DNA of 64,000 nt from Desulfuromonadales bacterium. Its GTDB lineage: Bacteria > Desulfobacterota > Desulfuromonadia > Geobacterales > Pseudopelobacteraceae. The position numbers and the translations under genes were made by a program. The stretch lies in assembly GCA_016650295.1 (NCBI GenBank), contig JAENWA010000013.1:48457-112456 (forward strand), written 5' to 3'. The notes under the pieces are model-generated. The model saw only the letters and a list, made by a program, of their open reading frames with translations, was not told the DNA's origin and searched no databases. Positions 39,594 to 58,187 of this stretch are shown here, one piece after another; position 1 is the first letter of the stretch, and the number at the start of each line of letters is the position of its first letter.

Positions 39594-39594
39594 A

Positions 39595-39692
39595 GAAGGT
39601 TGAAGGTTGAAGGCTGAAGGTTGAAGGTTGAAGGTTGAAGGTTGAAGGTTGAAGGTTGAAGGATGAGGGATGAGGGATGAGGGATGAGGTAA
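39595..39692 (+). repeat. heptamer tandem array: (GAAGGTT/GAAGGCT) x9, GAAGGAT, (GAGGGAT) x3, GAGGTAA
   Basis: Read directly from the sequence. The 14 in-phase 7-nt units start 2 nt after the ehrA-like stop codon. Confidence 0.95.
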
Positions 39693-39710
39693 CGCTTTTG
39701 CCTTGTTTTC

Positions 39711-39731
39711 CCTTCAGCCTTCAGCCTTCAG
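39711..39731 (+). repeat. (CCTTCAG) x3, inverse complement of the GAAGGCT/GAAGGTT units
   Basis: CCTTCAGCCTTCAGCCTTCAG can pair with the upstream GAAGG(C/T)TGAAGG units to form a long imperfect hairpin within the 167-nt intercistronic gap. Confidence 0.9.
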
Positions 39732-39760
39732 TCTATAAGTAACATTGAGGATGGCCGATT

Positions 39761-40669: not shown

Positions 40670-40673
40670 CCAT

Positions 40674-41315
40674 ATGATATTATTAGCAGATCAACTATTA
40701 GTCCTGGTGATGCTGATCAATCTGGTCATGCTCGGAACGAGCCGACTGATCTTTTCCATCCGCGCCGTGGCTGTCCAGGGGGTCATTCTCGGCATCTTGC
40801 CCGGCTTGATTCACCCTTTTTCCGGTCACCTGGCCGGCATCACGGTCGGGATCATCCTGGCCAAAGGGATTATCATCCCGTACCTGATCAGCGATGCCGT
40901 CCGCAAGGCCCACATCAGGCGCGAAGTGGAGCCATTCCTCGGCTATGTGCCGACCCTGCTCCTGGGCGCCGTGTTCACCGCTCTTTCCTTTGCTTTTGCC
41001 GAACAATTGCCTCTCGCGCCTGAACACAAGGAACTTCTGTTTGTTCCGGCCTCCATCGCCACCCTCTTGACCGGCTTTCTGGTCCTCACAACACGGCGCA
41101 AGGCTATTTCCCAGGTCATCGGCTATCTGGTAATGGAAAACGGTATTTTCGTATTCGGACTATTGTTGAGCGAGGCTATGCCGGTCATGGTGGAGGCTGG
41201 TGCGCTGCTCGATCTTCTGGTGGGGATATTTGTCATGGGAATTGTCATCAACCATATCAGCCGGGAGTTTTCGTCCCTGGACACATCTCGTCTGCGGACT
41301 CTCAAGGAGGAGTAG
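40674..41315 (+). CDS. Ehr complex subunit, HyfE-like small membrane subunit (EhrC-like)
   Basis: 213 aa with about 6 TM helices and a HyfE-like block (ISQVIGYLVMENGIFVFGLLL). Confidence 0.75.
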   Translation: MILLADQLLVLVMLINLVMLGTSRLIFSIRAVAVQGVILGILPGLIHPFSGHLAGITVGIILAKGIIIPYLISDAVRKAHIRREVEPFLGYVPTLLLGAVFTALSFAFAEQLPLAPEHKELLFVPASIATLLTGFLVLTTRRKAISQVIGYLVMENGIFVFGLLLSEAMPVMVEAGALLDLLVGIFVMGIVINHISREFSSLDTSRLRTLKEE

Positions 41316-41319
41316 CAGC

Positions 41320-44273: not shown

Positions 44274-44280
44274 ACAGGTT

Positions 44281-44322
44281 GAAGGTTGAAGGTTGAGGGA
44301 TGAGGGTTGAGGGATGAGGAAA
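44281..44322 (+). repeat. second heptamer array: GAAGGTT x2, GAGGGAT, GAGGGTT, GAGGGAT, GAGGAAA
   Basis: Read directly from the sequence. It starts 8 nt after the large-subunit stop. A partial complementary CCTTCAG/CCTGTCA segment follows at 44364-44377. Confidence 0.9.
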
Positions 44323-44411
44323 TATCTTGAATTTGGTGGTCAAGTTGGGTTATCCCCTGACAGCCTTCAGCCTGTCAACCTGAGTAGTTATCAATACAAG
44401 GATAGTAACTC

Positions 44412-45161
44412 ATGATTCGTGCCATTATTTCCCGTTTCAAGCAAGGACATCGCACCATGCCCTATCCCGCAGCGCCGCCGCAGATGCCGGAACGGTTCCG
44501 CGGTTACCCGGATGCAGCATCGCTGGCCCGGGCCGCAGAGCATGGTGATGATGAATCGGCAGAATGTCCGTATGGCGCCTTTTCGGCTTCAAACGGGGGC
44601 TGTCTGGATCTGGGGAAATGCCTCTTCTGCGCCGAGTGCCCGGCCGGCAACATGGAATTCACCACGGATCACCGGCTGGCCGTGACAAAGAGGGAGCAAC
44701 TGCTCATAACGCCTGAGTCTGACCGCCAGCTGGCACAGCCGCTTCCTCCTGATCTGCGACGGATTTTCGGTCGCTCGCTCAAGTTCCGGGAGGTCAGCGC
44801 CGGCGGGTGCAATGCCTGTGAGGCCGATACCAACGTGCTGTCAACCATAGGCTGGGACTTGGGCCGCTTCGGCATTCAGTTCGTGGCCTCGCCCCGCCAC
44901 GCGGACGGACTCTGGGTAACCGGCCCGGTTACTCAAAACATGGTCCAGGCACTGCTTACGACCTATGAGGCGATTCCCTCCCCCAAGATCGTTGTCGCCT
45001 GTGGCGCCTGTGCCATCAACGGCGGGCCGTACATCGATTCGCCCCAGGTCTGCAACGGTGTGGACAGACTGATTCCGGTCGATCTCTACATCCCCGGCTG
45101 CCCGCCTCATCCGTTAACCATTCTTGACGGGCTGTTGCGCATTCTCGATAAAATCAGATGA
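44412..45161 (+). CDS. NuoB/HycG-like small subunit with an N-terminal Cys-containing extension (EhrS-like)
   Basis: 249 aa with NuoB-type cluster ligands (GGCNACE, ACGACAINGG, IPGCPPHP). The N-terminal about 90 aa carry a partial ferredoxin-like pattern (ECPYGAF...GKCLFCAECP). Confidence 0.8.
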   Translation: MIRAIISRFKQGHRTMPYPAAPPQMPERFRGYPDAASLARAAEHGDDESAECPYGAFSASNGGCLDLGKCLFCAECPAGNMEFTTDHRLAVTKREQLLITPESDRQLAQPLPPDLRRIFGRSLKFREVSAGGCNACEADTNVLSTIGWDLGRFGIQFVASPRHADGLWVTGPVTQNMVQALLTTYEAIPSPKIVVACGACAINGGPYIDSPQVCNGVDRLIPVDLYIPGCPPHPLTILDGLLRILDKIR

Positions 45162-45189
45162 TATCGCTCAATCCAAGAAAGGAGTCTTC

Positions 45190-46071
45190 ATGGATCCTGA
45201 ATTAAGCGAACAACTTAAAAGGGTTCTTGACTCTGTCGAAGCTCTGCTGCCGCAACGGGCAGGCAAGATCGACTGGAAAGAGTGCCATGCCGCCAACTGG
45301 CGGCGGCACTCCTTTGTCGGCTACCTTGACCCGGTGCCGGAAATCGAGGGGATACACCTGGACGATCTGCTCGGCATTGAAAAGCAGAAACAGATCCTGA
45401 TCCGGAACACCGCCCAGTTTCTCAATAAGTTTCCTGCCAACAATGTTCTGCTGTGGGGTACGCGCGGCACCGGTAAATCATCTCTGGTCCGCGCCCTCCT
45501 CAATCGTTATGCCCCGGAGGGCCTCAGGATCATCCAGGTAGACAAAGATGATCTGGTTCACCTGCCTGATATTGTTAATTCGATTAAACAGGAACCGTAC
45601 CGGTTTATAATCTTCTCCGATGACGTATCGTTTGAAGTTGGCGAGGTCGGTTACAAGATGCTCAAAAGTGCTCTGGATGGTTCCGTATATGCTCCGCCTG
45701 AGAACACGAGAATCTACGTCACGTCCAATCGGCGCCATCTGTTGCCGGAATACGAGACCGACAATCGCGGAGCTATGCTGGTCAAAAACGAGATTCATCA
45801 CGGTGAGGCGGCTGAAGAAAAGATCTCGCTCTCCGGCAGGTTTGGTCTTTGGATCGGTTTCCACCCTTTTTCTCAGGATCAGTATGTCGAGGTTGTCCGG
45901 CAGTGGGTTGTGAAACTTTCCCAACAGTATAATATTGCTCCCGTCTGGGATGACAACGGAGAAAAGGCCGCCATAGAGTGGGCCTACAGCAAGGGAGACA
46001 ACAGTGGTCGCATTGCCTATCAATTTGCTACCGACTGGGTAGGAGCTACACTGCTAAGGCAGCAGATGTAG
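45190..46071 (+). CDS. DUF815-family AAA-type ATP-binding protein
   Basis: The ATG at 45190 has an AAAGGAG Shine-Dalgarno sequence. Walker A is GTRGTGKSSLV and Walker B-like is FIIFSDD. The overall pattern is typical of DUF815 proteins. Confidence 0.75.
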   Translation: MDPELSEQLKRVLDSVEALLPQRAGKIDWKECHAANWRRHSFVGYLDPVPEIEGIHLDDLLGIEKQKQILIRNTAQFLNKFPANNVLLWGTRGTGKSSLVRALLNRYAPEGLRIIQVDKDDLVHLPDIVNSIKQEPYRFIIFSDDVSFEVGEVGYKMLKSALDGSVYAPPENTRIYVTSNRRHLLPEYETDNRGAMLVKNEIHHGEAAEEKISLSGRFGLWIGFHPFSQDQYVEVVRQWVVKLSQQYNIAPVWDDNGEKAAIEWAYSKGDNSGRIAYQFATDWVGATLLRQQM

Positions 46072-46330: not shown

Positions 46331-49159
46331 GTGTCACCCACACCTGAACAGGAAGCGCGCATAGAGATCGACCGCATGCTGGTCGAGGCCGGCTGGCTGG
46401 TGCAGGACGTGAAGAGTGTCAACCTGCATGCCGGCCGGGGCGTGGCCATCCGCGAGTTCCCGCTGGAGCGCGGCTTCGGTTTCGCCGATTACCTGCTGTA
46501 TATCGACGGCCGGGCAGCCGGGGTGATCGAGGCCAAGCGGGCCGGCGTGACCCTCTCGGGTGTCGAGATCCAGTCCGACCGTTATACCCAGGGCCTGCCC
46601 GCTTCGCTTCCGGCCTGGTTCCGTCCCCTTCCCTTCCGTTATCAATCCACCGGCGTCGAGACCCGTTTTACCAGCGGCCTTGATCCCGATCCCCGTTCAC
46701 GCGAAGTGTTCTCCTTTCACCGTCCCGAGACCCTGGCCGAGTGGCTGGATACGGCCTGCCGCAGCGTGGAGAGCGCCACCCACCAGCCCGGTGAAGTGGC
46801 TGAACCGGGCCTGATCTGGTCGCCGGACTGCTACCGACAGCGACTGCGACACATGCCGCCCCTGCACAGTGAGGGGCTCTGGCTGGCCCAGTTCACGGCC
46901 ATCGGCAACCTGGAGAAATCCCTGGCCGCCGACCGACCCCGCTCGCTGGTGCAGATGGCCACCGGCTCGGGCAAGACCTTTACCGCCGTCTCCTTCATCT
47001 ATCGCCAGCTGAAGTTCGCCGGTGCCCGGCGGGTGCTGTTCCTGGTAGACCGAGCCAACCTGGGACGCCAGACCCTCAAGGAGTTCCAGCAGTACCAGTC
47101 CCCTTACACCCCCTACAAGTTCTCCGAGGAGTACATCGTCAACCACCTGCAGTCCAGCCGCCTGGACAGCACGGCGCGGGTCAGCATCTGCACCATCCAA
47201 CGGCTCTACTCGATCCTGCGCGGCGAGGAACTGGCCCCGGAGCTGGAGGAGGAATCGCTCTTCGACCATGCCGGCCTCTTCCGCGAGCCACCGCCGGTGG
47301 TCTACAACCCGGCCATCCCGCCCGAGACATTCGACCTGATCGTTACCGACGAGTGCCACCGCTCGATCTACAACCTCTGGCGTCAAGTGCTGGAGTATTT
47401 CGACGGATTCCTGGTCGGCTTGACCGCCACCCCCGGCAAGCAGACCTTCGGCTTCTTCAACCAGAACCTGGTGATGGAATACCCCCACGAGCAGGCCGTG
47501 GCCGACGGGGTCAACGTCAACTACGACGTCTACCGCATCCGCACGCGGATAACCCAAGGGGGCTCAGTCGTGGAGGCCGGACATTACGTGGACCACCGCG
47601 AGCGGGAGACGCGGGCCGTGCGCTGGGAACAGCTGGACGAGGACCTTGCCTACGAGGCGGGTCAGCTCGACCGGGACGTGGTGGCGGTGGACCAGATCCG
47701 CACCGTGATCCGGACCTTTCGCGACAAGGTGCTGACCGAGATCTTCCCCGGCCGCACCTGGGTGCCCAAGACCCTGATCTTCGCCAAGGACGACTCCCAC
47801 GCCGAGGACATCGTCCGCATCGTGCGCGAGGAGTTCGGCAAGGGGAACGACTTCTGCCAGAAGATCACCTACCGCACCACCGGCCGCAAGCCGGAAGAGC
47901 TGATCGCCGAGTTCCGCACCAGCCCCATGCCGCGCATCGCCGTCACCGTGGATATGATCGCTACCGGCACCGACATCAAACCGCTGGAGTGCGTTTTCTT
48001 CATGCGCATGATCCGTTCCCGTTCCTTCTTCGAACAGATGAAGGGGCGCGGGGTGCGGGTGATCAACGATACCGACCTGCAGGCGGTCACCCCCGATGCC
48101 GTGGCCAAGACCCACTTCGTCATCGTCGATGCGGTCGGCGTCTGTGAACAGGACAAGACCGATTCCCGCCCGCTGGAAAAGAGGCCGAGCGTCTCCTTGG
48201 AAAAACTGCTCCAGGCCGTGGCCCTGGGCAATACCGAGAGCGAGGTGGTCTCCTCCATTGCCGGGCGTTTTGCCCGCCTGGAGCGCAAGCTCGATCCGGC
48301 CGGCAAGGCGGAGATCGAGCGGTTGACGGGTGGCAAGGGGTTGAAGGAGCTGACCGGCGACCTGATCGCTGCCATCGACCCGGAACAACAGATCGAGCAG
48401 GCCCAGGCCGATTTCGGCGTGGGTGATCCGACCGTGGAGCAGGTCCGCCAGGCCGGTGTCAGGCTGATCCAGCAAGCGGTTCGGCCGCTCTGTGAGCCGA
48501 AGCTCAGGGAGAAGATCCTGGAGCTGCAGCGTAAGGCCGACCAGATTATCGACACGGTCAGCGCCGACGAGGTGATCGAGGCCGGTTTCGATGCCGATGC
48601 CCTGGACAAGGCCAAGGGACTGGTGCACTCCTTCGAACAGTTCATCGAGCAGAACAAAGACGAGATCACCGCCTTGCAGATCCTCTACAGCCGCCCCTAC
48701 CGCCAGCGGTTGAAGTACGACGAGATCAAGGGACTGGCCGAGATGATCGAACGTCCCCCTTATCTGTGGCGCATCGACCGATTGTGGGATGCCTACGCCG
48801 CCCTGGAAACATCCAAGGTCAAGGGGGCAGGCAGAAGGCGCCTCTGGACTGATATCGTCTCGCTGGTCCGTTTTGCCCTGCATCAAGAGCCGACCCTGGA
48901 GCCGTTCGAGGAGCATGTCCAAGAGAAATTTGCCGCCTGGATTGCCAAGCAGGAGGCCAGCGGGAAGGGTTTCAGCGATGAGCAGCGCTGGTGGCTGGAG
49001 CGGATTCGCGATCACGTCATTGCCAGCCTGGAGATCGGGCGGGATGATTTCGAGTTTACGCCGTTCAAGGAGAACGGCGGGATCGGCAAGGTGTATCAGT
49101 TGTTTGGAGAGGAGTTGTGGGGGATGTTGGAGGAATTGAATGAGGTGCTGGCGGCGTAA
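46331..49159 (+). CDS. hsdR: type I restriction endonuclease subunit R (HsdR, EcoEI-like)
   Basis: 942 aa with a GTG start. It has an N-terminal nuclease region, SF2 helicase motifs (MATGSGKTFTA, DECHRS, TATP) and a long helical C-terminal domain. Confidence 0.9.
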   Translation: MSPTPEQEARIEIDRMLVEAGWLVQDVKSVNLHAGRGVAIREFPLERGFGFADYLLYIDGRAAGVIEAKRAGVTLSGVEIQSDRYTQGLPASLPAWFRPLPFRYQSTGVETRFTSGLDPDPRSREVFSFHRPETLAEWLDTACRSVESATHQPGEVAEPGLIWSPDCYRQRLRHMPPLHSEGLWLAQFTAIGNLEKSLAADRPRSLVQMATGSGKTFTAVSFIYRQLKFAGARRVLFLVDRANLGRQTLKEFQQYQSPYTPYKFSEEYIVNHLQSSRLDSTARVSICTIQRLYSILRGEELAPELEEESLFDHAGLFREPPPVVYNPAIPPETFDLIVTDECHRSIYNLWRQVLEYFDGFLVGLTATPGKQTFGFFNQNLVMEYPHEQAVADGVNVNYDVYRIRTRITQGGSVVEAGHYVDHRERETRAVRWEQLDEDLAYEAGQLDRDVVAVDQIRTVIRTFRDKVLTEIFPGRTWVPKTLIFAKDDSHAEDIVRIVREEFGKGNDFCQKITYRTTGRKPEELIAEFRTSPMPRIAVTVDMIATGTDIKPLECVFFMRMIRSRSFFEQMKGRGVRVINDTDLQAVTPDAVAKTHFVIVDAVGVCEQDKTDSRPLEKRPSVSLEKLLQAVALGNTESEVVSSIAGRFARLERKLDPAGKAEIERLTGGKGLKELTGDLIAAIDPEQQIEQAQADFGVGDPTVEQVRQAGVRLIQQAVRPLCEPKLREKILELQRKADQIIDTVSADEVIEAGFDADALDKAKGLVHSFEQFIEQNKDEITALQILYSRPYRQRLKYDEIKGLAEMIERPPYLWRIDRLWDAYAALETSKVKGAGRRRLWTDIVSLVRFALHQEPTLEPFEEHVQEKFAAWIAKQEASGKGFSDEQRWWLERIRDHVIASLEIGRDDFEFTPFKENGGIGKVYQLFGEELWGMLEELNEVLAA
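49084..49157 (+). repeat. direct repeat copy 1 (3' end of hsdR)
   Basis: 74 nt matching 50313-50386 with 3 mismatches. It encodes the last about 24 codons of HsdR (GKVYQLFGEELWGMLEELNEVLAA). Confidence 0.95.
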
Positions 49160-49248
49160 TAATATAACTGATATATTATATTTGCTGTTGACATTAATAA
49201 TTAATATGTTATTTTTATGTCATAAATAAATAACATGAGAGTTATATT

Positions 49249-49719
49249 ATGACGCCGAAACAGAGACAGGCAGCCCGACAGCAGCTCGACAAGACCTTGA
49301 GCCTGTTCGGTTCTGCAAAAAGAATTCAACCGCCGGTAAAAGGATGGATTCGGGCCGTACGCGAGGTGCTGGGAATGTCTGGTACACAGCTGGCTAAACG
49401 GCTCGGGGTCTCTCAGCCGCGTATCCCGAAACTGGAGCAGGATGAGCTGTCCGGCGCTTTGACCCTGAAAACCATGCGTCAGGCGGCTGAGGCCTTGGAC
49501 TGTGTCTTTATCTATGGACTTGTCCCGCGCACATCACTGGAGGATACCATCAGGGCGCAGGCCCGAAAGGTTGCCGGGGAACGCATGCAGCGGGTATCGC
49601 ACTCCATGCTCCTTGAGTCGCAGGCACTAGGCAAGGAAGAGCAGCGCGCCTCCCTTGACGCTGCCGTTGATGAGCTGGCACGCGAGACGCCGCGAGACTT
49701 GTGGGATTCGAAAGCATGA
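49249..49719 (+). CDS. mobile mystery protein A (XRE-type HTH; TIGR02612-like)
   Basis: 156 aa with the HTH segment GWIRAVREVLGMSGTQLAKRLGVSQPRIPKLEQDE. It is paired with the Fic gene as in the TIGRFAM mob_myst_A/B pair. Confidence 0.75.
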   Translation: MTPKQRQAARQQLDKTLSLFGSAKRIQPPVKGWIRAVREVLGMSGTQLAKRLGVSQPRIPKLEQDELSGALTLKTMRQAAEALDCVFIYGLVPRTSLEDTIRAQARKVAGERMQRVSHSMLLESQALGKEEQRASLDAAVDELARETPRDLWDSKA

Positions 49720-50300
49720 ACTTTGACTACCCGGAAGGGGCAACGCCACTCGACCCGGATGAGGCACAGGGATTGCTGCTCTCCCATATTACCACACGGG
49801 CAGAGCTTGACCGCTGGGAGCAGGAGAACATCACCGAAGCCGAAGTCTGGGCCTTCCGCCGCACCCCGCGTGACATCCTCACCGATGGTTTCATCAAACG
49901 CCTGCATAAACGGATGTTCGGCCAGGTCTGGCGCTGGGCAGGAGAATACCGGACCACCGGCAAGAATATCGGCGTGCCGGCATGGCAGATAGCCACGGAA
50001 CTGCGCACTCTCTGTGCCGATACCGCCGCCTGGCTGGAACATGGCAGCTATCTGCCCGACGAGATCGCCGTCCGTTTCCATCACCGGCTCACGGTGATTC
50101 ATCCTTTTCCCAACGGCAATGGCCGTCATGCCCGGATGATGACCGATATCCTGTTGGTGCATCTGTTGAATCAGCCACGTTTTACCTGGGGAGGCGGCAA
50201 TCTTGTTGATGCCGGGGAGTGCCGCCGGCAGTACATAAACGCACTTCGGGCGGCGGATCGTCATGATTACGGGCCGCTGCTTGAGTTTGTTCGGACGTAG
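49716..50300 (+). CDS. mobile mystery protein B (Fic/DOC family; TIGR02613-like)
   Basis: The Fic core motif is HPFPNGNGRHARMM (HxFxxGNGRxxR, with N in place of the usual D/E). The ATG at 49716 overlaps the upstream stop as ATGA. The track start at 49701 is a GTG. Confidence 0.8.
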   Translation: MNFDYPEGATPLDPDEAQGLLLSHITTRAELDRWEQENITEAEVWAFRRTPRDILTDGFIKRLHKRMFGQVWRWAGEYRTTGKNIGVPAWQIATELRTLCADTAAWLEHGSYLPDEIAVRFHHRLTVIHPFPNGNGRHARMMTDILLVHLLNQPRFTWGGGNLVDAGECRRQYINALRAADRHDYGPLLEFVRT

Positions 50301-50312
50301 GATAAAGAAAAG

Positions 50313-50386
50313 CGGCAAGGTGTATCAGTTGTTTGGAGAGGAGTTGTGAGGGATGTTGGAGGAATTGAATGAGGTGCTTGCAGCGT
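50313..50386 (+). repeat. direct repeat copy 2 (relic hsdR 3' end abutting hsdS)
   Basis: It matches 49084-49157. A G-to-A change creates an in-frame TGA (GEEL*GML), and it ends in GCGTGATGG, overlapping the hsdS start. Confidence 0.95.
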
Positions 50387-51824
50387 GATGGAAAAACATA
50401 ATTTAAAATCTCCCCTTAAGACTAAAATGATTAAGTTTGGGAAGCTATGTAAAGTTCAAGGTGGATTTGCATTCAAAAGCACATGGTATAAAGGAGACGG
50501 AATACCTCTTGTCAGAATTTCGAGCCTTGTAAATAGCACTGTTCAATTTGACGAAAAGACGGTCTTCCTTGATCCCTCGCGATTAAAGGAATACTCCGAT
50601 TTTACTTTAAAAAAGGGTGACACCCTCATTGCCATGTCGGGTGCAACTACAGGCAAAATGGCTGTTTATAGCGACAACCAAGAAGCTTTGCTTAACCAAC
50701 GTGTTGGAAGATTCAAGTTGTTGTCAGAGTTACCAGTTGATCCTAAATATATTTCCTACCTTGTAATCCAACTTCGCGACAGAGTCCTTAAAGATGCATA
50801 CGGCGCAGCACAGCCAAATATCAGTCCCAAACAAATTGAAGATATTGAAGTCCCATATTTCCCTTTGAATGAGCAACGACTGATCGTCGCCGAAATCGAA
50901 AAGCAATTCTCCCGCCTGGATGAAGCCGTTGCCTCACTCAAGCGGATTCAGGCTAATCTCAAACGCTACAAAGCCGCCGTCCTCAAGGCCGCTGTGGAAG
51001 GCAAACTCACCGAACAGTGGCGTAAGGATCACCCCGACGTCGAACCTGCCGACCAACTCCTCAAACGCATCCTCGCCGAACGCCGCGACAAGTGGGAAAC
51101 CGAAGAGCTGGCGAAGATGAAGGCAAAGGGTATAAAGCCGAAGGATGATTCTTGGAAGAAGAAATACAAGGAGCCTGCCTGGCCGGATACGGCCAATCTG
51201 CCGGAATTGCCGGAGGGGTGGGTGTGGGCGAAACTTGAAGCTATTGCTGCACTCAAGGGTGGAATCACGGTAGACAAGAAGCGAAAAGACCCGACTGCGC
51301 GGCTTGTCCCCTATCTCCGTGTTGCTAACGTGCAGAGAGGTTACCTGAACCTAACAGAAATGAAAGAGATAGAGGCTTCTCAATCCGTCATCGAAGAATT
51401 AAGCCTTATCCCAGGTGATATTTTATTTAATGAAGGCGGAGACCGCGATAAGCTTGGTCGTGGCTGGATTTGGGAAGGCCAACTTCCTGAATGTATCCAT
51501 CAGAATCACGTCTTTAGGGCAAGACTCTGTGCCAGCGGTGTTTCAGCAAAGTTGATTTCTTGGTGGGGTAACACATTCGGTAAGGACTATTTTCTTCGAG
51601 CAGGAAAGCAGACAACAAATCTTGCATCCATTAATATCACAAAGCTCAGTGAATTCCCGATTCCACTGATGCCAGAAGCTGAACAACACCAAATTGTGGA
51701 AGAAATCGAGCGCCGTCTCTCCGTCACCGAAGAACTCGAAGCCACCATCGAAACCAACCTCAAACGCGCTGAGCGACTTAGGCAGACGATCTTGCAACAG
51801 GCGTTTTCGGGTGGGTTGGTTTAA
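50385..51824 (+). CDS. hsdS: type I restriction-modification specificity subunit HsdS
   Basis: 479 aa with two target-recognition domains separated by a conserved helical spacer (LNEQRLIVAEIEKQFSRLDEAVASLKRIQANLKRYKAAVLKAAVEGKLT). The C-terminal conserved helix is EQHQIVEEIERRLSV... Confidence 0.9.
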   Translation: MMEKHNLKSPLKTKMIKFGKLCKVQGGFAFKSTWYKGDGIPLVRISSLVNSTVQFDEKTVFLDPSRLKEYSDFTLKKGDTLIAMSGATTGKMAVYSDNQEALLNQRVGRFKLLSELPVDPKYISYLVIQLRDRVLKDAYGAAQPNISPKQIEDIEVPYFPLNEQRLIVAEIEKQFSRLDEAVASLKRIQANLKRYKAAVLKAAVEGKLTEQWRKDHPDVEPADQLLKRILAERRDKWETEELAKMKAKGIKPKDDSWKKKYKEPAWPDTANLPELPEGWVWAKLEAIAALKGGITVDKKRKDPTARLVPYLRVANVQRGYLNLTEMKEIEASQSVIEELSLIPGDILFNEGGDRDKLGRGWIWEGQLPECIHQNHVFRARLCASGVSAKLISWWGNTFGKDYFLRAGKQTTNLASINITKLSEFPIPLMPEAEQHQIVEEIERRLSVTEELEATIETNLKRAERLRQTILQQAFSGGLV

Positions 51825-51839
51825 ATACTGGAGGGTGCA

Positions 51840-52868
51840 TTGAACAACCCTTTTTCAGAAGAAAAACTCGCAAGGTTGTTCGAGTCAGATGCTGCCAGAG
51901 CTGATCGCCTTAAACGACGTGAGAGCACCACGCTCGAACTGAAACAGAATTTCAGCCTGTCACCTGATGCCAAGGTTGAATACGGTCGCACAATGGCTGC
52001 ATTTGCGAACCGAGATGGCGGCTATTTATTGTTTGGAATAAAGGACCAACCGCACCTCTTGTTGGGTATGATCAATGATAGATTCGAGACACTTGACCCG
52101 AGGATTTTATCGCAGTTCCTTGCCGAACAATTTTCGCCAAATATTAACTGGCATCATCACGTACATAACAAAGATGGAAAGCGTTTCGGTGTTATCTACG
52201 TAGCACCAGCAAAACGTAAACCAATCGTTTGTACAAGAAACAACGGCAAGCTGAGAGATGGCGACGTATATTATCGATATCAAGGTGAAACTAGGCTTAT
52301 AGCATCTGCTGAACTTCATGGGCTTATACAAGATCTCATTGACGCCGAAAGGAAGTCATGGCGAGAGTTATTAACCAAAACAGCTCATACAATTCCAAGC
52401 GCAACATATCTTCTGGACACAAATTCAGGCCGTGCAACCGGTGAGCGAGGTACATTTGTAATCGGTGAGCAACTCCTCGAAAAGGTCAAATTCATCGAGG
52501 AAGGACACTTTGAAGAAGGGGGAGAACCGGCATTACGGGTTATTGGTGATGTTGAAGTTGTGAGAACTGAAATGGTCCAGGTACCTCATCCGGTTCCGAC
52601 AGACCCTGCAGTTACTCACCCTTTGCTACAGAAAGATCTAATGGCAGGAATAAATGCGGAGTTTGGGGCGGGGACTGTAAATCAGTTCGACATGCAGTGT
52701 GTTCGGTCCGTACATAACGTAACTACTAATCAAGAATGGTACTATTTGAACACCATTGGATTACATGCACCGCAATACAGCAATACTTACCTTGAGTGGC
52801 TTAAAGAGCAGTTTAGGCAGAATCCAACATTCTTTAACGATGCGCGAATGATACGAAATCTATTTTGA
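51840..52868 (+). CDS. AlbA_2 (Schlafen-type) domain protein
   Basis: 342 aa with a TTG start 5 nt after a GGAGGG Shine-Dalgarno sequence. The N-terminus RESTTLELKQNFSLS...AAFANRDGGYLLFGIKD...YVAPAKRKPIV is typical of the AlbA_2 putative nucleic-acid-binding domain. Confidence 0.65.
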   Translation: MNNPFSEEKLARLFESDAARADRLKRRESTTLELKQNFSLSPDAKVEYGRTMAAFANRDGGYLLFGIKDQPHLLLGMINDRFETLDPRILSQFLAEQFSPNINWHHHVHNKDGKRFGVIYVAPAKRKPIVCTRNNGKLRDGDVYYRYQGETRLIASAELHGLIQDLIDAERKSWRELLTKTAHTIPSATYLLDTNSGRATGERGTFVIGEQLLEKVKFIEEGHFEEGGEPALRVIGDVEVVRTEMVQVPHPVPTDPAVTHPLLQKDLMAGINAEFGAGTVNQFDMQCVRSVHNVTTNQEWYYLNTIGLHAPQYSNTYLEWLKEQFRQNPTFFNDARMIRNLF

Positions 52869-52878
52869 TGTGGAATTC

Positions 52879-53070
52879 TTAGCGGGGAGTATCGGAAGTC
52901 TCTTTCGTGGTCTCTTTCACTGCCCGCTCTTCCCTGAAACGTTGCAGGTCTTCTTCGGTAATATGAATACCTTCAATTGCGCTGGAAGAGATAATGGATC
53001 TATCCAGCATTTTGCGCCTGAGCACAGGATCTTTCAGGTAGGGATTGGTTTCAAGCAATGACTTTTTCAT
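52879..53070 (-). CDS. small VbhA-like protein carrying a Fic-inhibitory SxxxEG motif
   Basis: 63 aa: MKKSLLETNPYLKDPVLRRKMLDRSIISSSAIEGIHITEEDLQRF... The segment SSAIEG fits the (S/T)xxxE(G/N) alpha-inh motif of class I Fic antitoxins. The family call is by eye. Confidence 0.4.
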   Translation of the reverse strand: MKKSLLETNPYLKDPVLRRKMLDRSIISSSAIEGIHITEEDLQRFREERAVKETTKETSDTPR

Positions 53071-53112
53071 AGAGGCAGTATACCGAATCCGACGATATTT
53101 TGCACCAGAAAT

Positions 53113-53164
53113 GCCATTTTAGCTCAGGTGCTAGAGCACATCACTCGTAATGATGAGGTTCAAT
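53113..53164 (+). pseudogene. truncated tRNA-Thr(CGU)-like fragment
   Basis: It has a 5' acceptor GCCATTT, a D arm GCTC-AGGTGCTA-GAGC and an anticodon arm CATCA-CTCGTAA-TGATG. Only AGG precedes a TTCAATTCC T-loop-like piece, and there is no 5' T-stem and no 3' acceptor. Confidence 0.7.
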
Positions 53165-53207
53165 TCCCCTTTAGCTCAGTTGGTAGAGCAGGTGGCTGTT
53201 AATCAAC
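53165..53207 (+). pseudogene. truncated tRNA-Asn(GUU)-like 5' half
   Basis: It has TCCCCTT-TA-GCTC-AGTTGGTA-GAGC-A-GGTGG-CTGTTAA-TCAAC, with one mismatch in the anticodon stem. No variable or T arm follows. Confidence 0.65.
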
Positions 53208-53232
53208 AGGAAAAATTTGAAGGACTTCGCAC

Positions 53233-53877
53233 ATGATCATTTTCCTCGACGAATCTGGCGATTTGGGCTTTGACTTTAGCAAGCCGAAGACATCCAGAAA
53301 GTTCGTTATTACTCTTCTCGTTTGTGAAAATGTTGAAGCAATTGAAGGGTTCCGTCGTGGCGTTCGCAGGACCTTGAAAAACAAGCTTAACAACAGGAAG
53401 AACAGATCACAGGAGTTGAAAGGTACCAATACTACTCAGGTCATCAAGGAATATTTTTACCGTCATGTATCGCCTGATGGCTGGCAAATCTATTCGGTAA
53501 TTCTGAATAAAAGCCGGGTGTACGATAATCTTCGTACAAAGCTTGGAAAGAAGAAGCTTTACAACTTTCTGGCCCGGTTTCTTCTGGAAAAGATTGATCT
53601 TTCAAAGGCCGGCAATACCGTCAACCTGATTATGGACAGGTGCAAGAACAAAGAGGAGATCAAAGACTTTAACTCCTATGTAGAAAACCAGCTACAGGGA
53701 TTACTGCCGCTGGATATCCCACTATTCATAACCCACGAAATGTCACATAACAACCCTGGCTTGCAGGCTGTAGATCTCTTTTGCTGGGGAATCTTCAGAA
53801 AACACGAGGGAGAGGATGAAGAATGGTACAGGGTGTATCGTTCGGCCATTGCCTACGAAGGGGAGTATCTGAAATAG
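53233..53877 (+). CDS. DUF3800 domain protein
   Basis: 214 aa. The N-terminal IIFLDESGDLGF (the conserved DE motif of DUF3800) and the overall size fit the family. Confidence 0.7.
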   Translation: MIIFLDESGDLGFDFSKPKTSRKFVITLLVCENVEAIEGFRRGVRRTLKNKLNNRKNRSQELKGTNTTQVIKEYFYRHVSPDGWQIYSVILNKSRVYDNLRTKLGKKKLYNFLARFLLEKIDLSKAGNTVNLIMDRCKNKEEIKDFNSYVENQLQGLLPLDIPLFITHEMSHNNPGLQAVDLFCWGIFRKHEGEDEEWYRVYRSAIAYEGEYLK

Positions 53878-54007
53878 ACAATAAAAAAGACGGCCCCTGT
53901 TACGTCTATTATCCCGAGGCTCATGGCCAACCGATGGAGGGGAGCACCTCAGGCACGTAACAGGATTTACCCGTCTGTTAAGACTGTATACCTGATAAAA
54001 TTTAACT

Positions 54008-54026
54008 GTCAACAATTATTGTTGAC
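54008..54026. promoter_or_regulatory. 19-nt palindrome GTCAACAAT-T-ATTGTTGAC upstream of hsdM (operator-like)
   Basis: Perfect 9-nt inverted arms. The right arm contains TTGACG, with TATGAG 17 nt downstream. Confidence 0.35.
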
Positions 54027-54062
54027 GCTTAGTGATCCTCGGGTTATGAGCCCGATGGTCGG

Positions 54063-54091
54063 TGACCACTAGACCCCCAGTCTAGTGAGCC
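54063..54091. repeat. copy 2 of the 25-nt identical palindromic repeat
   Basis: Exact match to 33196-33220. It lies about 35 nt upstream of a perfect TATAAT (54122-54127) and 65 nt upstream of the hsdM start. Confidence 0.9.
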
Positions 54092-54151
54092 AATAACCTA
54101 CGGCTTAGAAGGCCGTTGCTCTATAATCATAAAATTGAAACGAGACCATAG

Positions 54152-55648
54152 ATGACCCCAGCGGCAATCGTACAAAAACTCTGGAACTACTGCAACGTCC
54201 TGCGCGACGACGGAATGAGCTACGGCGATTACGTCGAGCAGCTCACCTTCCTGCTCTTCCTCAAGATGGCCGACGAGCGGACGAAGAAACCCTACAGCCA
54301 GACAAGCCCGGTTCCGGCTGGCTATGACTGGCCCAGCCTGCTGAAGAAGGACGGCGACGAACTCTTCGACCACTACCGCCACACTCTGGAAAAACTGGGA
54401 CAGGAGAAGGGGCTGCTGGGACTGATCTTCGGCCGCGCCCAGAACAAGTTCCAGGACCCGGCCAAACTGCGCCGTCTGCTGGTGGACCTGCTGGACAAGG
54501 AAAACTGGTCGATCATGAGCGCCGACGTCAAGGGGGAGGCCTACGAGGGGCTTTTGGAGAAGAACGCCCAGGACACCAAGAGCGGCGCCGGGCAGTACTT
54601 TACCCCGCGTCCGCTGATCCAGGCCATTGTGGATGTCATGGCGCCCAGGCCGAAGGAGACGATCTGCGACCCGGCCTGCGGCACCGGCGGCTTTCTGCTG
54701 TCGGCCTTTACCTATGTCAGCGACCCCAAGCATTACAAGCTGGACCGGGACCAGAAGCGATTCCTGGAAACCGAGACCCTGCGCGGCTGGGAATTGGTGC
54801 ACGCCACGGCACGGCTCTGCGCCATGAACATGATGCTGCACGGCATCGGCGGCGAGGCGCTCCCCATCGAGGCGGGCGTTGATTCGCTGGCTTCCGATCC
54901 GGGCGAGCGCTTCGATATCATTCTGACCAACCCGCCCTTCGGCAAGAAGAGCAGCACAACCATCATCGGCGCGGACGGCAAGGCCTACAGCGAAAAGGAG
55001 ACCATCGAGCGGGATGATTTCTGCGCCACCACCTCCAACAAGCAGCTCAACTTCATGCAGCACATCAAGACCCTGCTCAAACAACACGGCCGCGCCGCCG
55101 TGGTGGTGCCGGACAACGTGCTCTTCGAAGGCGGTGCGGGTGAAACAATCCGTCGCAAGCTGCTTCAGGAGTGCGACGTGCACACCCTGCTGCGCCTCCC
55201 TACCGGTCTGTTCTATGCCCAGGGGGTCAAGGCCAACGTGATCTTCTTCGACAAGAAACCGGCCAGCGAGACACCCTGGACAAAGAAGCTCTGGATCTAC
55301 GACCTGCGCACCAACCTGCACTTCACCCTCAAGACCAACCCGCTCAAGCGCACCGACCTGGAAGAGTTCGTGGCCCTCTACAATCCGGCCAACCGCCATG
55401 AGCGCAGCGCCACCTGGAGCGATGCGACCCCCGCTGGCCGCTGGCGGTCCTACGACTACGCCAATCTGATGGCCCGCGACAAGGCCAGTCTGGACATCTT
55501 CTGGCTGCGGGACGAATCCCTGGAGAATTCGGACAACCTGCCCGAGCCGGGTGTGATCTGCCGCGACATGATCGTTGATCTGGAAAGCGCTCTGGAACAG
55601 CTGCGGCTGATCGCGGAGGATGTGGGTGAAGAACTCGATGAGAGCTAG
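54152..55648 (+). CDS. hsdM: type I restriction-modification methyltransferase subunit HsdM
   Basis: 498 aa with an HsdM N-terminal domain (KLWNYCNVLRDDGMSYGDYVEQLTFLLFLKM), a SAM motif (DPACGTGGFL) and the catalytic NPPFG. Confidence 0.93.
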   Translation: MTPAAIVQKLWNYCNVLRDDGMSYGDYVEQLTFLLFLKMADERTKKPYSQTSPVPAGYDWPSLLKKDGDELFDHYRHTLEKLGQEKGLLGLIFGRAQNKFQDPAKLRRLLVDLLDKENWSIMSADVKGEAYEGLLEKNAQDTKSGAGQYFTPRPLIQAIVDVMAPRPKETICDPACGTGGFLLSAFTYVSDPKHYKLDRDQKRFLETETLRGWELVHATARLCAMNMMLHGIGGEALPIEAGVDSLASDPGERFDIILTNPPFGKKSSTTIIGADGKAYSEKETIERDDFCATTSNKQLNFMQHIKTLLKQHGRAAVVVPDNVLFEGGAGETIRRKLLQECDVHTLLRLPTGLFYAQGVKANVIFFDKKPASETPWTKKLWIYDLRTNLHFTLKTNPLKRTDLEEFVALYNPANRHERSATWSDATPAGRWRSYDYANLMARDKASLDIFWLRDESLENSDNLPEPGVICRDMIVDLESALEQLRLIAEDVGEELDES

Positions 55649-55931: not shown

Positions 55932-55994
55932 TATAAAGCAATCAGGCCGCCTTGGCCCGGTAACATCCCGTCAACACGGATTCGGAGGTTCTTC

Positions 55995-56423
55995 ATGAAG
56001 GTCGAATGGCTGGAAAGTCTTTCGGTAGGGGTAGAGGAAATCGATCGCCAGCACAAGCTCCTTTTCGATAAATACAATGACTTTTTTACGGCCTACTCCG
56101 AGGGGCGGTCCGACGAAGAGGTAATCCGGCTGTTGAGTTTTCTTGAAGAGTATGTGGCCGTCCACTTTGCCAACGAGGAGAGGCTGCAACGACTGATCGG
56201 GTTTCCTGATTACCAGAAACATCTGAAGCAACACCAGGAACTGACCCGCACGGTTGCCGAACTCAAGGAACGCTTCAAAAAGCAGGGTCCCGACCCGAGC
56301 CTTATTACATCCACGGGCCTGTTGATGACCGGTTGGCTTATCGAGCACATTTCCGTCATGGACCGTGCCATCGGTCGGTTCATGAAGGAAGTGCAAAGCC
56401 GGGGTGCCGGGGAAAAACCCTGA
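55995..56423 (+). CDS. hemerythrin-like (bacteriohemerythrin) protein
   Basis: 142 aa (VEWLESLSVGVEEIDRQHKLLF...HFANEE...YQKHLKQHQ...WLIEHISVMD) with the His/Glu/Asp iron-ligand pattern. Confidence 0.85.
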   Translation: MKVEWLESLSVGVEEIDRQHKLLFDKYNDFFTAYSEGRSDEEVIRLLSFLEEYVAVHFANEERLQRLIGFPDYQKHLKQHQELTRTVAELKERFKKQGPDPSLITSTGLLMTGWLIEHISVMDRAIGRFMKEVQSRGAGEKP

Positions 56424-56538
56424 AGCCGCCTGTGAAGAGGATTTTAACGGGATGTCCGAGTGGACGCCGACTGTCGGCGAGGCTTGAAGAGAAAGCTGTT
56501 TCACAAAATGACCCTCGTTAAATAAGGAGGTGTGCGAC

Positions 56539-56835
56539 ATGAAGGTACTTGTCGATTTATGCGTGGTTCCGATCGGAGTTGGCGTATCCCTGTCTGCCTA
56601 TGTTGCGGAATGTGAAAAAATCCTGACCGGGGCGGGCCTGAAGAGTTCGCTGCACTCCTACGGGACCAACATCGAAGGCGAGTGGGACGATGTTTTCGCG
56701 CCCATCAAACGCTGCCATGAAAAAGTCCACGCCATGGGAGCACCGCGGATTACAACAACCATCAAGCTGGGAACACGCACCGACCGGGATCAGACCATGG
56801 CGGAGAAGATCGAAAGCGTGAAGAGCAAGCTGTGA
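56539..56835 (+). CDS. MTH1187/YkoF-family thiamine-binding protein (DUF77)
   Basis: 98 aa from the ATG at 56539, 8 nt after an AAGGAGG Shine-Dalgarno sequence (MKVLVDLCVVPIGVGVSLSAYVAECEKIL...TNIEGEWDDV). Confidence 0.75.
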   Translation: MKVLVDLCVVPIGVGVSLSAYVAECEKILTGAGLKSSLHSYGTNIEGEWDDVFAPIKRCHEKVHAMGAPRITTTIKLGTRTDRDQTMAEKIESVKSKL

Positions 56836-56877
56836 CCGCCACACGTGATGAGCAAAGAGACAGTTGATATCCCCCTG

Positions 56878-56904
56878 ATCCCCCTTTCTCAAGGGGGATT
56901 TTTG
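56878..56904 (+). terminator. rho-independent terminator
   Basis: Stem TCCCCCTT/AAGGGGGA with loop TCTC, followed by TTTTTG. Confidence 0.75.
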
Positions 56905-56957
56905 CAGCGGCGCCAGAAACGACAGTTTGTGCGGCGAACCAAAGGAACAGGCTTGCA

Positions 56958-58187
56958 ATGAAAATCCTGCACACATCGGATTGGCACATCGGGCGGGCGC
57001 TGTATGGCCGCAAACGCTACGAGGAATTCGCGCAATTTCTCGACTGGCTGATCGGCTGTATTGAGTCAGAAGGGATCGAGGCCCTGCTGGTGGCCGGGGA
57101 TGTCTTCGACAACGGTACGCCCGGCAACCGGGCGCTGGAGCTCTATTACCGCTTTCTGTGCCGCTGTGCCGGAGCAGGCTGCCGTCACGTGGTGGTCACG
57201 GCCGGCAACCACGATTCCCCCTCGCTGCTGAATGCACCCCGCGAGGTGTTGCGTTTCCTCAATGTCCACGTGGTTGGCTGCATGGCCGAAGCGACCGATG
57301 AGCTGGTTGTGCTGAACGATGTTGACGGCCGGCCGGAGCTGATCGTCTGCGCGGTTCCCTATCTGCGTGACCGCGATATCCGCAGCGCCGAGGCCGGTGA
57401 AACCTTTGAGGACAAGGGGCGCAAACTTGTGGAGGGTATCCGCGAGCACTACCGGCAGGCGGGCGAGGCGGCCGTTGCCAAGCGCTCCGAACTGGGGAGG
57501 AATATCCCCATTATCGCCATGGGACACCTGTTTACCAACGGCGGTCAGACCATGGAAGGCGATGGGGTGCGGGAGCTGTATGTGGGGACCCTTGGGCAGG
57601 TGCGGGCCGATTGCTTTCCCGAATGCTTCGACTACCTGGCCCTCGGTCATCTGCATCTGGCGCAGCGGGTCGGCGGTTCGGATCTGCGCCGCTATTCGGG
57701 TGCGCCCATCCCGATGAGCTTCGGCGAGGCCGGGCAGCGCAAGGTTGTGGTGGCGGTGAATACAGGCGCCGAAGTTGTAACGGTACAGGAAATCCCTGTC
57801 CCCTGTTTTCAGACCTTGGCCACGGTGCGCGGCGACTGGCAGCGCATCGCCGGGCGGATCGGGGAGCTGAAACGGGATGGTGCGGCGGCTTGGCTGGAGG
57901 TGATCTACGAGGGGGATGAGGTTATCGCTGATCTGCAGGAACGCTTGCGGGAACTGATCGACGGCACGGCGCTGGAAATCCTGCGGGCCAAGAACATGCG
58001 CCTGGTGGAGCGGACCCTGAGCCGGATGGCGACGGAAGAGACCCTGGATGATCTCAGTGTTGACGATGTCTTCGCCCGCTGCCTGGCGGCCCATGCGGTG
58101 CCCGAGGAGCAGCAGGCCGAACTGGTGGCGGCCTTTCGTGAGACCGTGGCGGCACTGCATGAAGATGCCAGTTTGGGGGAAGTATGA
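56958..58187 (+). CDS. sbcD: exonuclease SbcCD subunit D (Mre11-like nuclease)
   Basis: 409 aa with phosphoesterase motifs (ILHTSDWHIG, LVAGDVFD, VVTAGNHD, GHLH). Confidence 0.92.
   Translation: MKILHTSDWHIGRALYGRKRYEEFAQFLDWLIGCIESEGIEALLVAGDVFDNGTPGNRALELYYRFLCRCAGAGCRHVVVTAGNHDSPSLLNAPREVLRFLNVHVVGCMAEATDELVVLNDVDGRPELIVCAVPYLRDRDIRSAEAGETFEDKGRKLVEGIREHYRQAGEAAVAKRSELGRNIPIIAMGHLFTNGGQTMEGDGVRELYVGTLGQVRADCFPECFDYLALGHLHLAQRVGGSDLRRYSGAPIPMSFGEAGQRKVVVAVNTGAEVVTVQEIPVPCFQTLATVRGDWQRIAGRIGELKRDGAAAWLEVIYEGDEVIADLQERLRELIDGTALEILRAKNMRLVERTLSRMATEETLDDLSVDDVFARCLAAHAVPEEQQAELVAAFRETVAALHEDASLGEV

Follow-up and report, generated by a model that had tools for sequence, protein, structure and literature searches.

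Candidate toxin and defence modules at the gene junctions of a type I restriction-modification locus from a Desulfuromonadales bacterium

How do genes for candidate toxins and defence proteins come to lie between the subunits of a restriction enzyme, and do they work with that enzyme or for themselves? Genes nested in type I restriction-modification (R-M) loci have long been known, PrrC and the Campylobacter rlo genes being examples. The locus that raises the question here lies in a window of 64,000 nt from a Desulfuromonadales bacterium (contig JAENWA010000013.1, positions 48,457 to 112,456; assembly GCA_016650295.1), to which all coordinates refer unless a locus handle precedes them. An initial annotation, made from the letters alone, had described its type I R-M genes hsdR, hsdS and hsdM as pulled apart by insertions, some of which might act as second-line defence linked to R-M. 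We consider it likely that the window holds a functional type I R-M operon of a family with the order hsdR-hsdS-cargo-hsdM, whose two junctions are landing pads for self-contained toxin/defence modules. There would be four such units: a 1.15-kb mobAB cassette (helix-turn-helix, HTH, plus Fic) with its own promoter at the hsdR/hsdS junction, where a 77-nt duplication keeps hsdR in frame; a Schlafen nuclease; an orphan Fic-inhibitor gene; and, immediately 5' of hsdM, a DUF3800 nuclease of RNase H-like type with an obligate convergent small RNA (sRNA). The modules would be independent second-line defences, of abortive-infection or toxin-antitoxin type, selected and travelling together with the R-M genes and not wired to HsdRMS. 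This reading is carried by the identities of the genes and their intact motifs, by repeat scars, by the recurrence of cargo in related loci and by the strict linkage of DUF3800 and its RNA. The locus can be annotated with confidence, and in itself it adds a further case to a documented phenomenon, the nesting of defence genes within type I R-M loci (10.1101/2024.01.29.577857; PMC11411939), which the initial annotation had also stated. What may be new, to a modest degree, is that the DUF3800-V protein-RNA pair is strongly associated with type I R-M and that scars formed by repeated hsd gene ends recur.

The hsd genes and their occupied junctions

In the map of open reading frames (ORFs) and in domain searches, every feature listed in the initial annotation is present at its given position or within a few bases of it. 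The hsd genes are indeed co-oriented, and hsdM starts 2,327 nt past the end of hsdS, the 2.3 kb given earlier:

46331-49159, forward strand: hsdR, type I restriction subunit with an EcoEI/EcoAI-type C-terminus (942 aa; EcoEI_R_C 2.4e-37, ResIII 3.4e-32, Helicase_C, HSDR_N; PADLOC REase_I)
50385/50388-51824, forward strand: hsdS, specificity subunit with two target-recognition domains (two Methylase_S stretches; PADLOC Specificity_I 4.8e-109)
54152-55648, forward strand: hsdM, type I methyltransferase (498 aa; N6_Mtase 6.1e-70, HsdM_N; PADLOC MTase_I 2.5e-197)

To place these genes among their relatives, we used an HsdM scan of 185,579 species genomes that returned 80 loci, the closest HsdM proteins belonging to Geobacteraceae and Desulfuromonadales metagenome-assembled genomes (83-94% identity). 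Gene order was counted in the 48 loci in which it was possible to locate hsdS as well as hsdM; in 39 of them hsdR was located too. hsdS lies upstream of hsdM in 48/48, across a gap of 0.8-8.8 kb that is never empty, and hsdR lies upstream of hsdS in the 39; in ten loci hsdR and hsdS, too, are more than 900 nt apart. Since the gap between hsdS and hsdM is occupied in all 48 loci, a split hsd locus is the normal state of this family, and the description of the window locus as pulled apart is misleading.

What fills the slots is highly varied. Clustering divides the cargo ORFs into well over 100 groups, most of them with a single member, and sister loci hold different cargo at the same junctions as the window. 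A Pfam census of 143 ORFs from the hsdR/hsdS and hsdS/hsdM slots together found Fic (7), AbiEii (6), DUF3800 (5), AAA_15, AAA_21 and WYL (4 each), RhuM, HerA, AbiEi and SLFN_AlbA_2 (3 each), SMODS and RVT (2 each), and DarT, HamA and HipA (1 each), with toxin and defence families, CBASS among them, predominating; two more distant DUF3800 cargo genes counted in this census were not recovered by a four-sequence DUF3800 hidden Markov model. Most cargo is co-oriented (111 of the 127 ORFs of at least 120 aa in the hsdS-to-hsdM slot). The same conclusions on orientation and defence content were reached by Payne et al. 2024 in their 'guilt-by-embedding' survey of defence genes nested in type I R-M, BREX, DISARM and Hma loci (10.1101/2024.01.29.577857), and TgvAB, in the type I R-M locus of V. 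cholerae VPI-2, is an experimentally proven embedded case (PMC11411939). As in the loci of that survey, known or candidate defence cargo sits here between the subunits and is mostly co-oriented, in the window including mobA, mobB and the Schlafen and DUF3800 genes. The present family differs in that the hsdS-to-hsdM slot is filled in every sampled relative, and in that partial copies of hsd gene ends often bracket the cargo, which the main text of 10.1101/2024.01.29.577857 does not mention.

The hsd genes of the window are full length with intact catalytic motifs. HsdR combines a helicase motor (Walker A GSGKT(212), DECH(340)) with a PD-(D/E)xK nuclease (candidate motif D53...E67xK69); HsdM has the motifs DPACGTGGF(173) and NPPF(260) of a gamma-class N6-adenine methyltransferase; and HsdS has two target-recognition domains split by conserved helices; these are the sequence marks of a type I system. 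Each of the three proteins aligns end to end with relatives, and hsdR does so over its full length with L002, L003 and L060 (84-91%). At the DNA level only the central and C-terminal conserved regions of hsdS match relatives, which indicates that its recognition domains have been swapped. Its true start is probably the ATG at 50388, overlapping the TGA of a duplicated hsdR end that is described below. Judged by its genes, the R-M operon is apparently functional.

Two further loci illustrate the range of the cargo. The hsdS-to-hsdM slot of a Nitrospiraceae locus (L064:1555-4335) holds a QueC homologue, an Ogg-HhH glycosylase-like protein and two further ORFs, followed by an inhibitor ORF and DUF3800; this cargo may be a 7-deazaguanine-type DNA modification or restriction system. 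In L003 (L003:7923-9979) the same slot contains a 194-aa ORF and a 489-aa reverse transcriptase (RVT_1), which could be a retron-, DRT- or Abi-type module.

The Fic cassette, the repeated hsd ends and an orphan inhibitor

At the hsdR/hsdS junction, two copies of the hsdR 3' end flank a Fic cassette; an antisense ORF with a Fic-inhibitory motif lies further downstream:

49084-49160, forward strand: copy 1 of a direct repeat, the in-frame hsdR 3' end, terminating in TAA (repeat search)
49161-50312, forward strand: mobile mystery A/B cassette, 1,152 nt between the repeat copies
49188-49215, forward strand: promoter-like site of the cassette, TTGACA-16-TATTTT (promoter scan)
49249-49719, forward strand: mobA, HTH protein (TIGR02612, 205.6 bits, cut-off 122.6)
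49716-50300, forward strand: mobB, Fic protein with HPFPNGNGRHAR (TIGR02613, 297.1 bits, cut-off 124.4; PADLOC PDC-S04 7.7e-22)
50313-50389, forward strand: copy 2, the displaced hsdR 3' end directly 5' of hsdS (77 nt, 95% identical to copy 1, spacing 1229)
52879-53070, reverse strand: small ORF of 63 aa with the Fic-inhibitory helix motif SSAIEG, which fits (S/T)xxxE(G/N), at residues 29-34

mobA and mobB overlap stop to start in ATGA and form the adjacent pair typical of mobile mystery proteins A and B; the close homologues of mobB are all 194 aa long. PDC-S04 is one of the PDC candidate families that Payne et al. added to PADLOC (10.1101/2024.01.29.577857), and this match, together with the Ex4ExK motif and Schlafen fold of the AlbA_2 protein discussed below, supports the candidate toxin/defence character that the initial annotation had ascribed to the cargo. 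Homology to mobAB copies outside hsd loci (L174, L176) spans 49164-50309 only, which identifies the cassette as a discrete unit, and further homologues occur in unrelated contexts away from R-M genes. Neither terminal repeats nor a recombinase were seen at its ends. Copy 2 of the repeat retains a TGA/ATG overlap with hsdS as at the native hsdR/hsdS junction of relatives, whose hsdR genes likewise end in GCGTGA, and the duplication leaves the hsdR reading frame intact. That the interposed genes were acquired separately, as had been proposed, is thus supported by the 77-nt duplication, by the homology limits at 49164 and 50309 and by the differing cargo of sister loci. The accompanying statement that the inserts are richer in AT is true of the Fic cassette (GC content of ~0.59-0.60, against 0.63-0.66 in hsdR), but the low-GC stretch 50250-54000 (0.42-0.52) includes hsdS itself. 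The hsdR-end/mobAB/hsdR-end/hsdS layout is found again in L172 (L172:4655-10744).

A 28-nt inverted repeat, 82% complementary (49152-49179 and 49230-49257), frames the promoter region of mobA and may be an operator for its HTH protein.

Repeated hsd ends recur widely among the relatives. Extra 5' fragments of hsdM lie inside the cargo of 17/69 loci, with two in L079, and the hsdR/hsdS interval contains extra hsdR 3' copies in L033 (three in total), L040, L053 and L164/L165, with a further one in L069 that is recognisable only as protein. Identity between the repeats is 66-95%; this imperfection speaks against an origin as target-site duplications and makes it look as if they had been copied from different hsd alleles and had come in together with the cargo. 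No integrase or transposase was found in the window locus, and L060, the relative with a 94% identical HsdM, has an IS200-like fragment in its hsdR/hsdS slot. We propose that cargo might enter by recombination that uses the conserved hsd gene ends as portable homology arms, either by Campbell-type integration of a circle in which the cargo is joined to a segment of an hsd end or by homology-facilitated illegitimate recombination. Imperfect direct repeats of hsd ends around cargo in many independent loci would represent a testable, recombinase-free route to the acquisition and stacking of embedded defence genes.

Two relatives bear on the history of the cargo in the window. L161 reads hsdR, hsdS, an 89-aa frame, tRNA fragments, DUF3800 (96% identical to that of the window), sRNA and hsdM, with no Fic cassette and no Schlafen gene. 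In L060, hsdS is followed by a 327-aa ORF, a 214-aa Fic gene, a convergent inhibitor ORF, tRNA fragments, DUF3800, sRNA and hsdM. The DUF3800 block with its tRNA-like left edge is therefore shared within the lineage, and Schlafen and mobAB are variable additions.

The small antisense ORF had been called VbhA-like. The inhibitory motif itself stands: homologues share SSAIEG (5 of them) as well as the N-terminal 40 residues. A sequence match to VbhA does not: a profile search found no PDB entry at E up to 10, no NCBIfam model matched, and family matches were weak (Fic_N, E=0.0014; SoFic, weak). We thus keep the term at the motif level only, as the profile found no solved structure. In 15/23 other loci with this ORF, a Fic gene of the 214-aa type without an inhibitory motif of its own lies immediately upstream and convergent; the pair is intact in sister locus L060, and no cognate Fic partner is present in the window. 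On this comparison the ORF of the window is an orphan remnant of a convergent Fic/inhibitor pair. Convergent orientation is unusual for a Fic toxin-antitoxin pair. The window genes resemble VbhT/VbhA and mobile mystery A/B in the overlapping HTH and Fic pair, in a canonical-type Fic loop and in a separate small protein with (S/T)xxxE(G/N); they differ from VbhT/VbhA in that mobA and mobB are without the inhibitory motif and in that the small inhibitor is convergent with its usual Fic partner and not upstream of it in an operon.

More generally, the 214-aa-type Fic (HPFREGNGRxAR, no internal inhibitory motif) and the convergent small SxxxEG ORF form a recurrent module directly before or after hsdM, in L009, L048, L058, L005, L047, L052, L062 and others.

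The DUF3800 nuclease and its convergent RNA

Directly in front of hsdM lies a protein-RNA pair whose two genes are strictly linked in the loci sampled. Its RNA had escaped the initial annotation, as had the 77-nt direct repeat around the Fic cassette:

53233-53877, forward strand: DUF3800 protein with an RNase H2-like nuclease fold, 214 aa (Pfam DUF3800 1.9e-16)
53884-53981, reverse strand: DUF3800-V sRNA, convergent with DUF3800 and 7 nt past its stop (Rfam RF02964, 45.8 bits, threshold 37.4)
54012-53983, reverse strand: promoter-like site of the sRNA, TTGACA-18-TACAGT, inside the palindrome GTCAACAATTATTGTTGAC at 54008-54026 (promoter scan)
53983-54027, no single strand: putative back-to-back promoter region, in which a forward-strand TTGACG (54022) -17- TATGAG (54045) faces hsdM (hexamers read from the sequence)

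In the protein, D6, E7, D135 and D181 are invariant in 32 homologues, as are the stretches DESGD (6-10) and QAVD (178-181, QxxD). An AlphaFold model (pLDDT 86.5) matched RNase HII of M. jannaschii in Foldseek (1eke, E 7.7e-5, prob 1.0). Metagenomes scanned with a DUF3800 profile provided 80 loci, in which the RNA was sought with a covariance model built from four sRNA copies. It was found in 77, in 76 of them directly after the DUF3800 stop on the opposite strand; in the 77th (L132) one match, cut by the contig end, has this position and a second lies ~4 kb upstream, and in the three loci without a match the contigs end at the gene. A basal stem with a U-run provides the RNA with its own terminator. 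Its structure is supported by covariation, with double changes at 17/29 pairs and 97.1% of cells paired, a result that 0/500 shuffles reached, in a model-fitted alignment that itself favours structure.

Antisense control of DUF3800 translation start was considered and dropped, the RNAduplex energies being -41.6 for the cognate, -42.1 for shuffled and -41.9 for non-cognate pairs in a crude comparison that ignores intramolecular structure. Long invariant unpaired stretches of the sRNA suggest that it is suited to recognition by a protein better than to antisense pairing. The sRNA might accordingly be imagined as a protein-bound, antitoxin-like regulator, with a ToxIN-like logic in which a constitutive, labile RNA would silence the nuclease. 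The likeness to type III toxin-antitoxin systems (ToxIN) lies in the strict combination of a nuclease with a small structured RNA, equipped with a terminator of its own, and is an analogy only: the RNA here is single-copy, downstream and convergent, with no upstream tandem array, and the nuclease is RNase H-like and not ToxN-like, so that the pair falls outside that class.

The DUF3800-V motif was described by Weinberg et al. 2017 (PMC5737381), and the literature states that there is no hypothesis for DUF3800 RNAs. DUF3800 itself is an RNase H-fold effector of type VII retrons and an accessory of class 2 CRISPR systems (PMC7736814, PMC10910872, PMC12669027). The window pair shares with these the RNA family (RF02964) beside DUF3800, the RNase H2-like fold and the acidic site, and differs from the retron and CRISPR cases in that its locus has no reverse transcriptase domain (Pfam) and no CRISPR array. 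Compared with the earlier description of the motif, what differs is the setting, the module here being mostly in or attached to type I R-M loci, often together with a 5' fragment of hsdM. Indeed, among the 44 metagenomic loci with both flanks covered, 26 (~60%) have hsd matches by tblastn with the window proteins, in the layout R-S-DUF3800-sRNA-M or, in another type I family, R-M-S-DUF3800. Pfam was also applied to 28 DUF3800 loci, namely those that had no hsd match and several whose match was weak or distant; a few of their ORFs proved to carry additional type I domains, and the other genes identified were housekeeping genes. Repeats of 66-101 nt from the hsdM 5' end bracket the DUF3800 module in L095, L103, L104 and L137, and in L146, L148, L150, L153 and L155 the sole hsdM match is a short 5' fragment just downstream of it.

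The hsdM gene appears, from its upstream sequence, to have its own promoter; the TGTCAA element of the back-to-back promoter region is invariant in 4 loci. It is a possible, though on balance doubtful, extension of the main proposal that DUF3800-V and its sRNA constitute an RNA-regulated, RNase H-like abortive-infection module specialised for type I R-M loci. Such a module would spread with an hsdM 5' homology arm and an outward promoter and could by recombination enter any related hsdM, leaving behind a truncated hsdM copy while the methylase is still expressed, and hsdR 3' arms would explain the stacking of other cargo. If true, this would provide the first function for a DUF3800-associated RNA motif and a concrete mechanism for the embedding of defence genes. 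Eleven DUF3800-associated RNA motifs have been without a functional hypothesis since 2017, and the strict pairing with a nuclease and the R-M context of more than half of the loci point to a role in defence or as a toxin-antitoxin system.

Three smaller features mark the hsdM leader. A perfect 8-bp hairpin, CACTAGAC-CCCCA-GTCTAGTG (54067-54087), is conserved in L060, and a perfect TATAAT follows 3' of it at 54122-54127. A 24-nt stretch just 5' of hsdM (54098-54121) is an exact match to L002:8843-8866, upstream of a RhuM-Fic cargo gene that abuts hsdM; cargo may also plug in between the hsdM leader and the hsdM start codon.

The Schlafen nuclease, tRNA-like fragments and the tie between cargo and R-M

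The remaining genes of the slot bring up the question of whether the cargo is linked in function to HsdRMS:

51840-52868, forward strand: prokaryotic Schlafen (pSlfn) nuclease, 342 aa, with an N-terminal SLFN domain (Pfam SLFN_AlbA_2 5.7e-20)
53113-53205, forward strand: two tRNA-derived 5' fragments, a Thr(CGT)-like acceptor/D/anticodon arm followed by an Asn(GTT)-like D arm and half anticodon arm

The Schlafen protein has the catalytic motif E28-STTL-E33-L-K35 (Ex4ExK), of which E28, E33 and K35 are invariant in 35 homologues. Its alignment with rat rSlfn13 (5yd0) includes the Ex4ExK stretch and GGYLLFG, and pairs D69 with the second D of GVDD. In the AlphaFold model the N- and C-terminal domains reach ~90 pLDDT, and Foldseek matched it to SLFN14, SLFN11, SLFN13, SLFN5 and the SAMD9 tRNase, all with prob 1.0; matches to PADLOC models were weak (PDC-S19 and PDC-S50 only). 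Bacterial Schlafens with an Ex4(E/D)xK motif are phage-triggered nucleases of the tRNA anticodon arm with C-terminal sensor domains (PMC13056530, Nat Microbiol 2026). The window protein shares with these anti-phage tRNases the motif, the SLFN fold, an extra C-terminal domain and a defence-island context; it differs in that its C-terminal domain is weakly REase-like and its subfamily is small (39 homologues found). By homology it is most likely a phage-triggered tRNase with the C-terminal domain as sensor. The gene starts with TTG 15 nt after hsdS, with a GGAGG Shine-Dalgarno sequence 7 nt before the start, and is probably co-transcribed with hsdS. An 83%-identical homologue occupies the same position directly after hsdS in L164/L165, the hsdS 3' end and the Schlafen gene of L164 being one contiguous block homologous to the window, and more distant homologues stand beside a type ISP-like system, beside an SNF2/SACS locus or alone among metabolic genes.

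L164 also contains a Schlafen of a second kind in its hsdR/hsdS slot (L164:4684-6432; SLFN_AlbA_2 plus HATPase_c_4, 485 aa). The 57-aa "gene" that follows it is a 134-nt copy of the hsdR 3' end.

Several observations weigh against the picture of self-contained defence modules in a maintained R-M operon. The active-site loop of mobB (HPFPNGNGR) has one mismatch to HxFx(D/E)GNGRxxR, N for D/E, and no inhibitory motif is recognisable in mobA or mobB. In the Schlafen protein the third acidic residue, D69, is not invariant across the family, and the one family match of the C-terminal domain (~255-342), EC042_2821, is sub-threshold. DUF3800 is without a PADLOC model and its module gave no significant PADLOC match, and about a third of DUF3800-V loci have no R-M genes and lie amid housekeeping genes. 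The homology-arm model draws on scars, with neither a recombination intermediate nor a recombinase seen. Finally, the hsd genes of L172, which hold the same Fic cassette, are decayed, with hsdR cut to 256 aa, hsdS split and hsdM truncated. Embedding is therefore no guarantee that the R-M system is maintained, and in L172 the cassette, to judge from these gene remnants, is one that has outlived a decaying R-M system.

L172 also favours the best-surviving alternative, namely that the slots are a genomic sink for tolerated, selfish toxin-antitoxin-like addiction cassettes that offer no phage defence, in an hsd locus that may itself be decaying. This idea is discussed in 10.1101/2024.01.29.577857, and it suits both the classic toxin-antitoxin types among the cargo (Fic/inhibitor, AbiE, HipA, DarT) and the ongoing erosion shown by the orphan inhibitor gene and the decayed tRNA fragments. 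We nevertheless regard it as unlikely, given that all three hsd genes of the window are full length with intact motifs, that the duplication preserves the hsdR frame, that the catalytic residues of Schlafen and DUF3800 are conserved and that the cargo of the family includes bona fide defence families (SMODS, HamA, reverse transcriptases, pSlfn).

The initial annotation had named PrrC as the classic embedded module. On a model of that type, one or more of the embedded proteins would be guards that HsdRMS holds inactive and releases when a phage anti-restriction protein blocks the enzyme. Guards of the PrrC/RloC type combine an ABC-ATPase N-domain with an anticodon-nuclease C-domain and are found almost exclusively in type I R-M loci. 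The window recalls the EcoprrI type IC locus in the placing of a candidate tRNA-targeting effector, here Schlafen, inside a type I hsd operon; the closeness of the Schlafen start to hsdS, the joint hsdS-Schlafen block in L164, the finding of more than half of the DUF3800-V loci within or beside type I R-M loci and the PrrC precedent itself (reviewed in PMC12707154) would fit a guard. Yet no cargo protein matched the PrrC/RloC models of PADLOC or NCBIfam, no ABC-ATPase domain was found in the cargo by Pfam, the hsd family and gene order differ from those of EcoprrI, and homologues of Schlafen, mobAB and DUF3800-V occur outside R-M loci, so that the locus does not have the marks of the PrrC class. 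Furthermore, phage proteins are the direct trigger of those pSlfn proteins that have been characterised (PMC13056530). A guard is accordingly very unlikely, and the functional link to HsdRMS proposed earlier finds no support; the missing PrrC/RloC match and the occurrence of the cargo families outside R-M speak for autonomous modules that share the location of the R-M genes, are transferred along with them and are perhaps transcribed with them too.

A second link suggested earlier, between the Schlafen protein and the adjacent tRNA-like sequences, is coincidental. The fragments belong to the DUF3800 block, whose left edge they form; they are decaying, and L161 has them but no Schlafen gene. 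Rfam recognises a tRNA at 53113-53197 (31.2 bits, threshold 29) only as a chimera of the two 5' fragments, in which 31 nt of the second, D-arm-like fragment stand where the model has 18 positions for the variable region and T arm. We rejected a tRNA gene, as ARAGORN calls none at 53113-53205 and the cloverleaf is incomplete, lacking a T arm. Classical att remnants are 3' halves; the window fragments are 5' halves, which argues against that origin too. The fragments occur only in the window, L060/L106 and L161 and are absent from L064, L007 and all other hsd relatives, and substitutions among the window, L161 and L060 copies break stem pairs without compensation, which weakens a decoy reading. 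That the element is functional, as a decoy, processing signal or target mimic for the Schlafen or DUF3800 nuclease, is highly improbable, for against the above-threshold Rfam score and the recurrence of the Asn-like piece 5' of two L060 cargo genes and, in the window and L161, of DUF3800 stand the missing T arm and ARAGORN call, the uncompensated stem changes, the narrow distribution and the Schlafen-less L161.

The Asn-tRNA-like element itself is 34 nt long, TAGCTCAGTYGGTAGARCAGGTGRCTGTTAATCA, and is found at 53172-53205, at L060:5813-5846 and 6758-6791 and at L161 ~9940-9973. In L060 two unrelated cargo genes, Fic and DUF3800, each have it 10-35 nt ahead of the start codon.

On either side the locus is flanked by ordinary chromosomal genes. 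Upstream (37608-46071) these encode subunits of a complex-I/Ech-type membrane hydrogenase and a DUF815 ATPase, and downstream (55995-61855) a hemerythrin, a thiamine-binding protein, SbcD and SbcC. The ORF at 55971-56540 on the reverse strand, 3' of hsdM, is probably no gene, the hemerythrin being encoded on the opposite strand, and the hsd locus therefore ends at hsdM.

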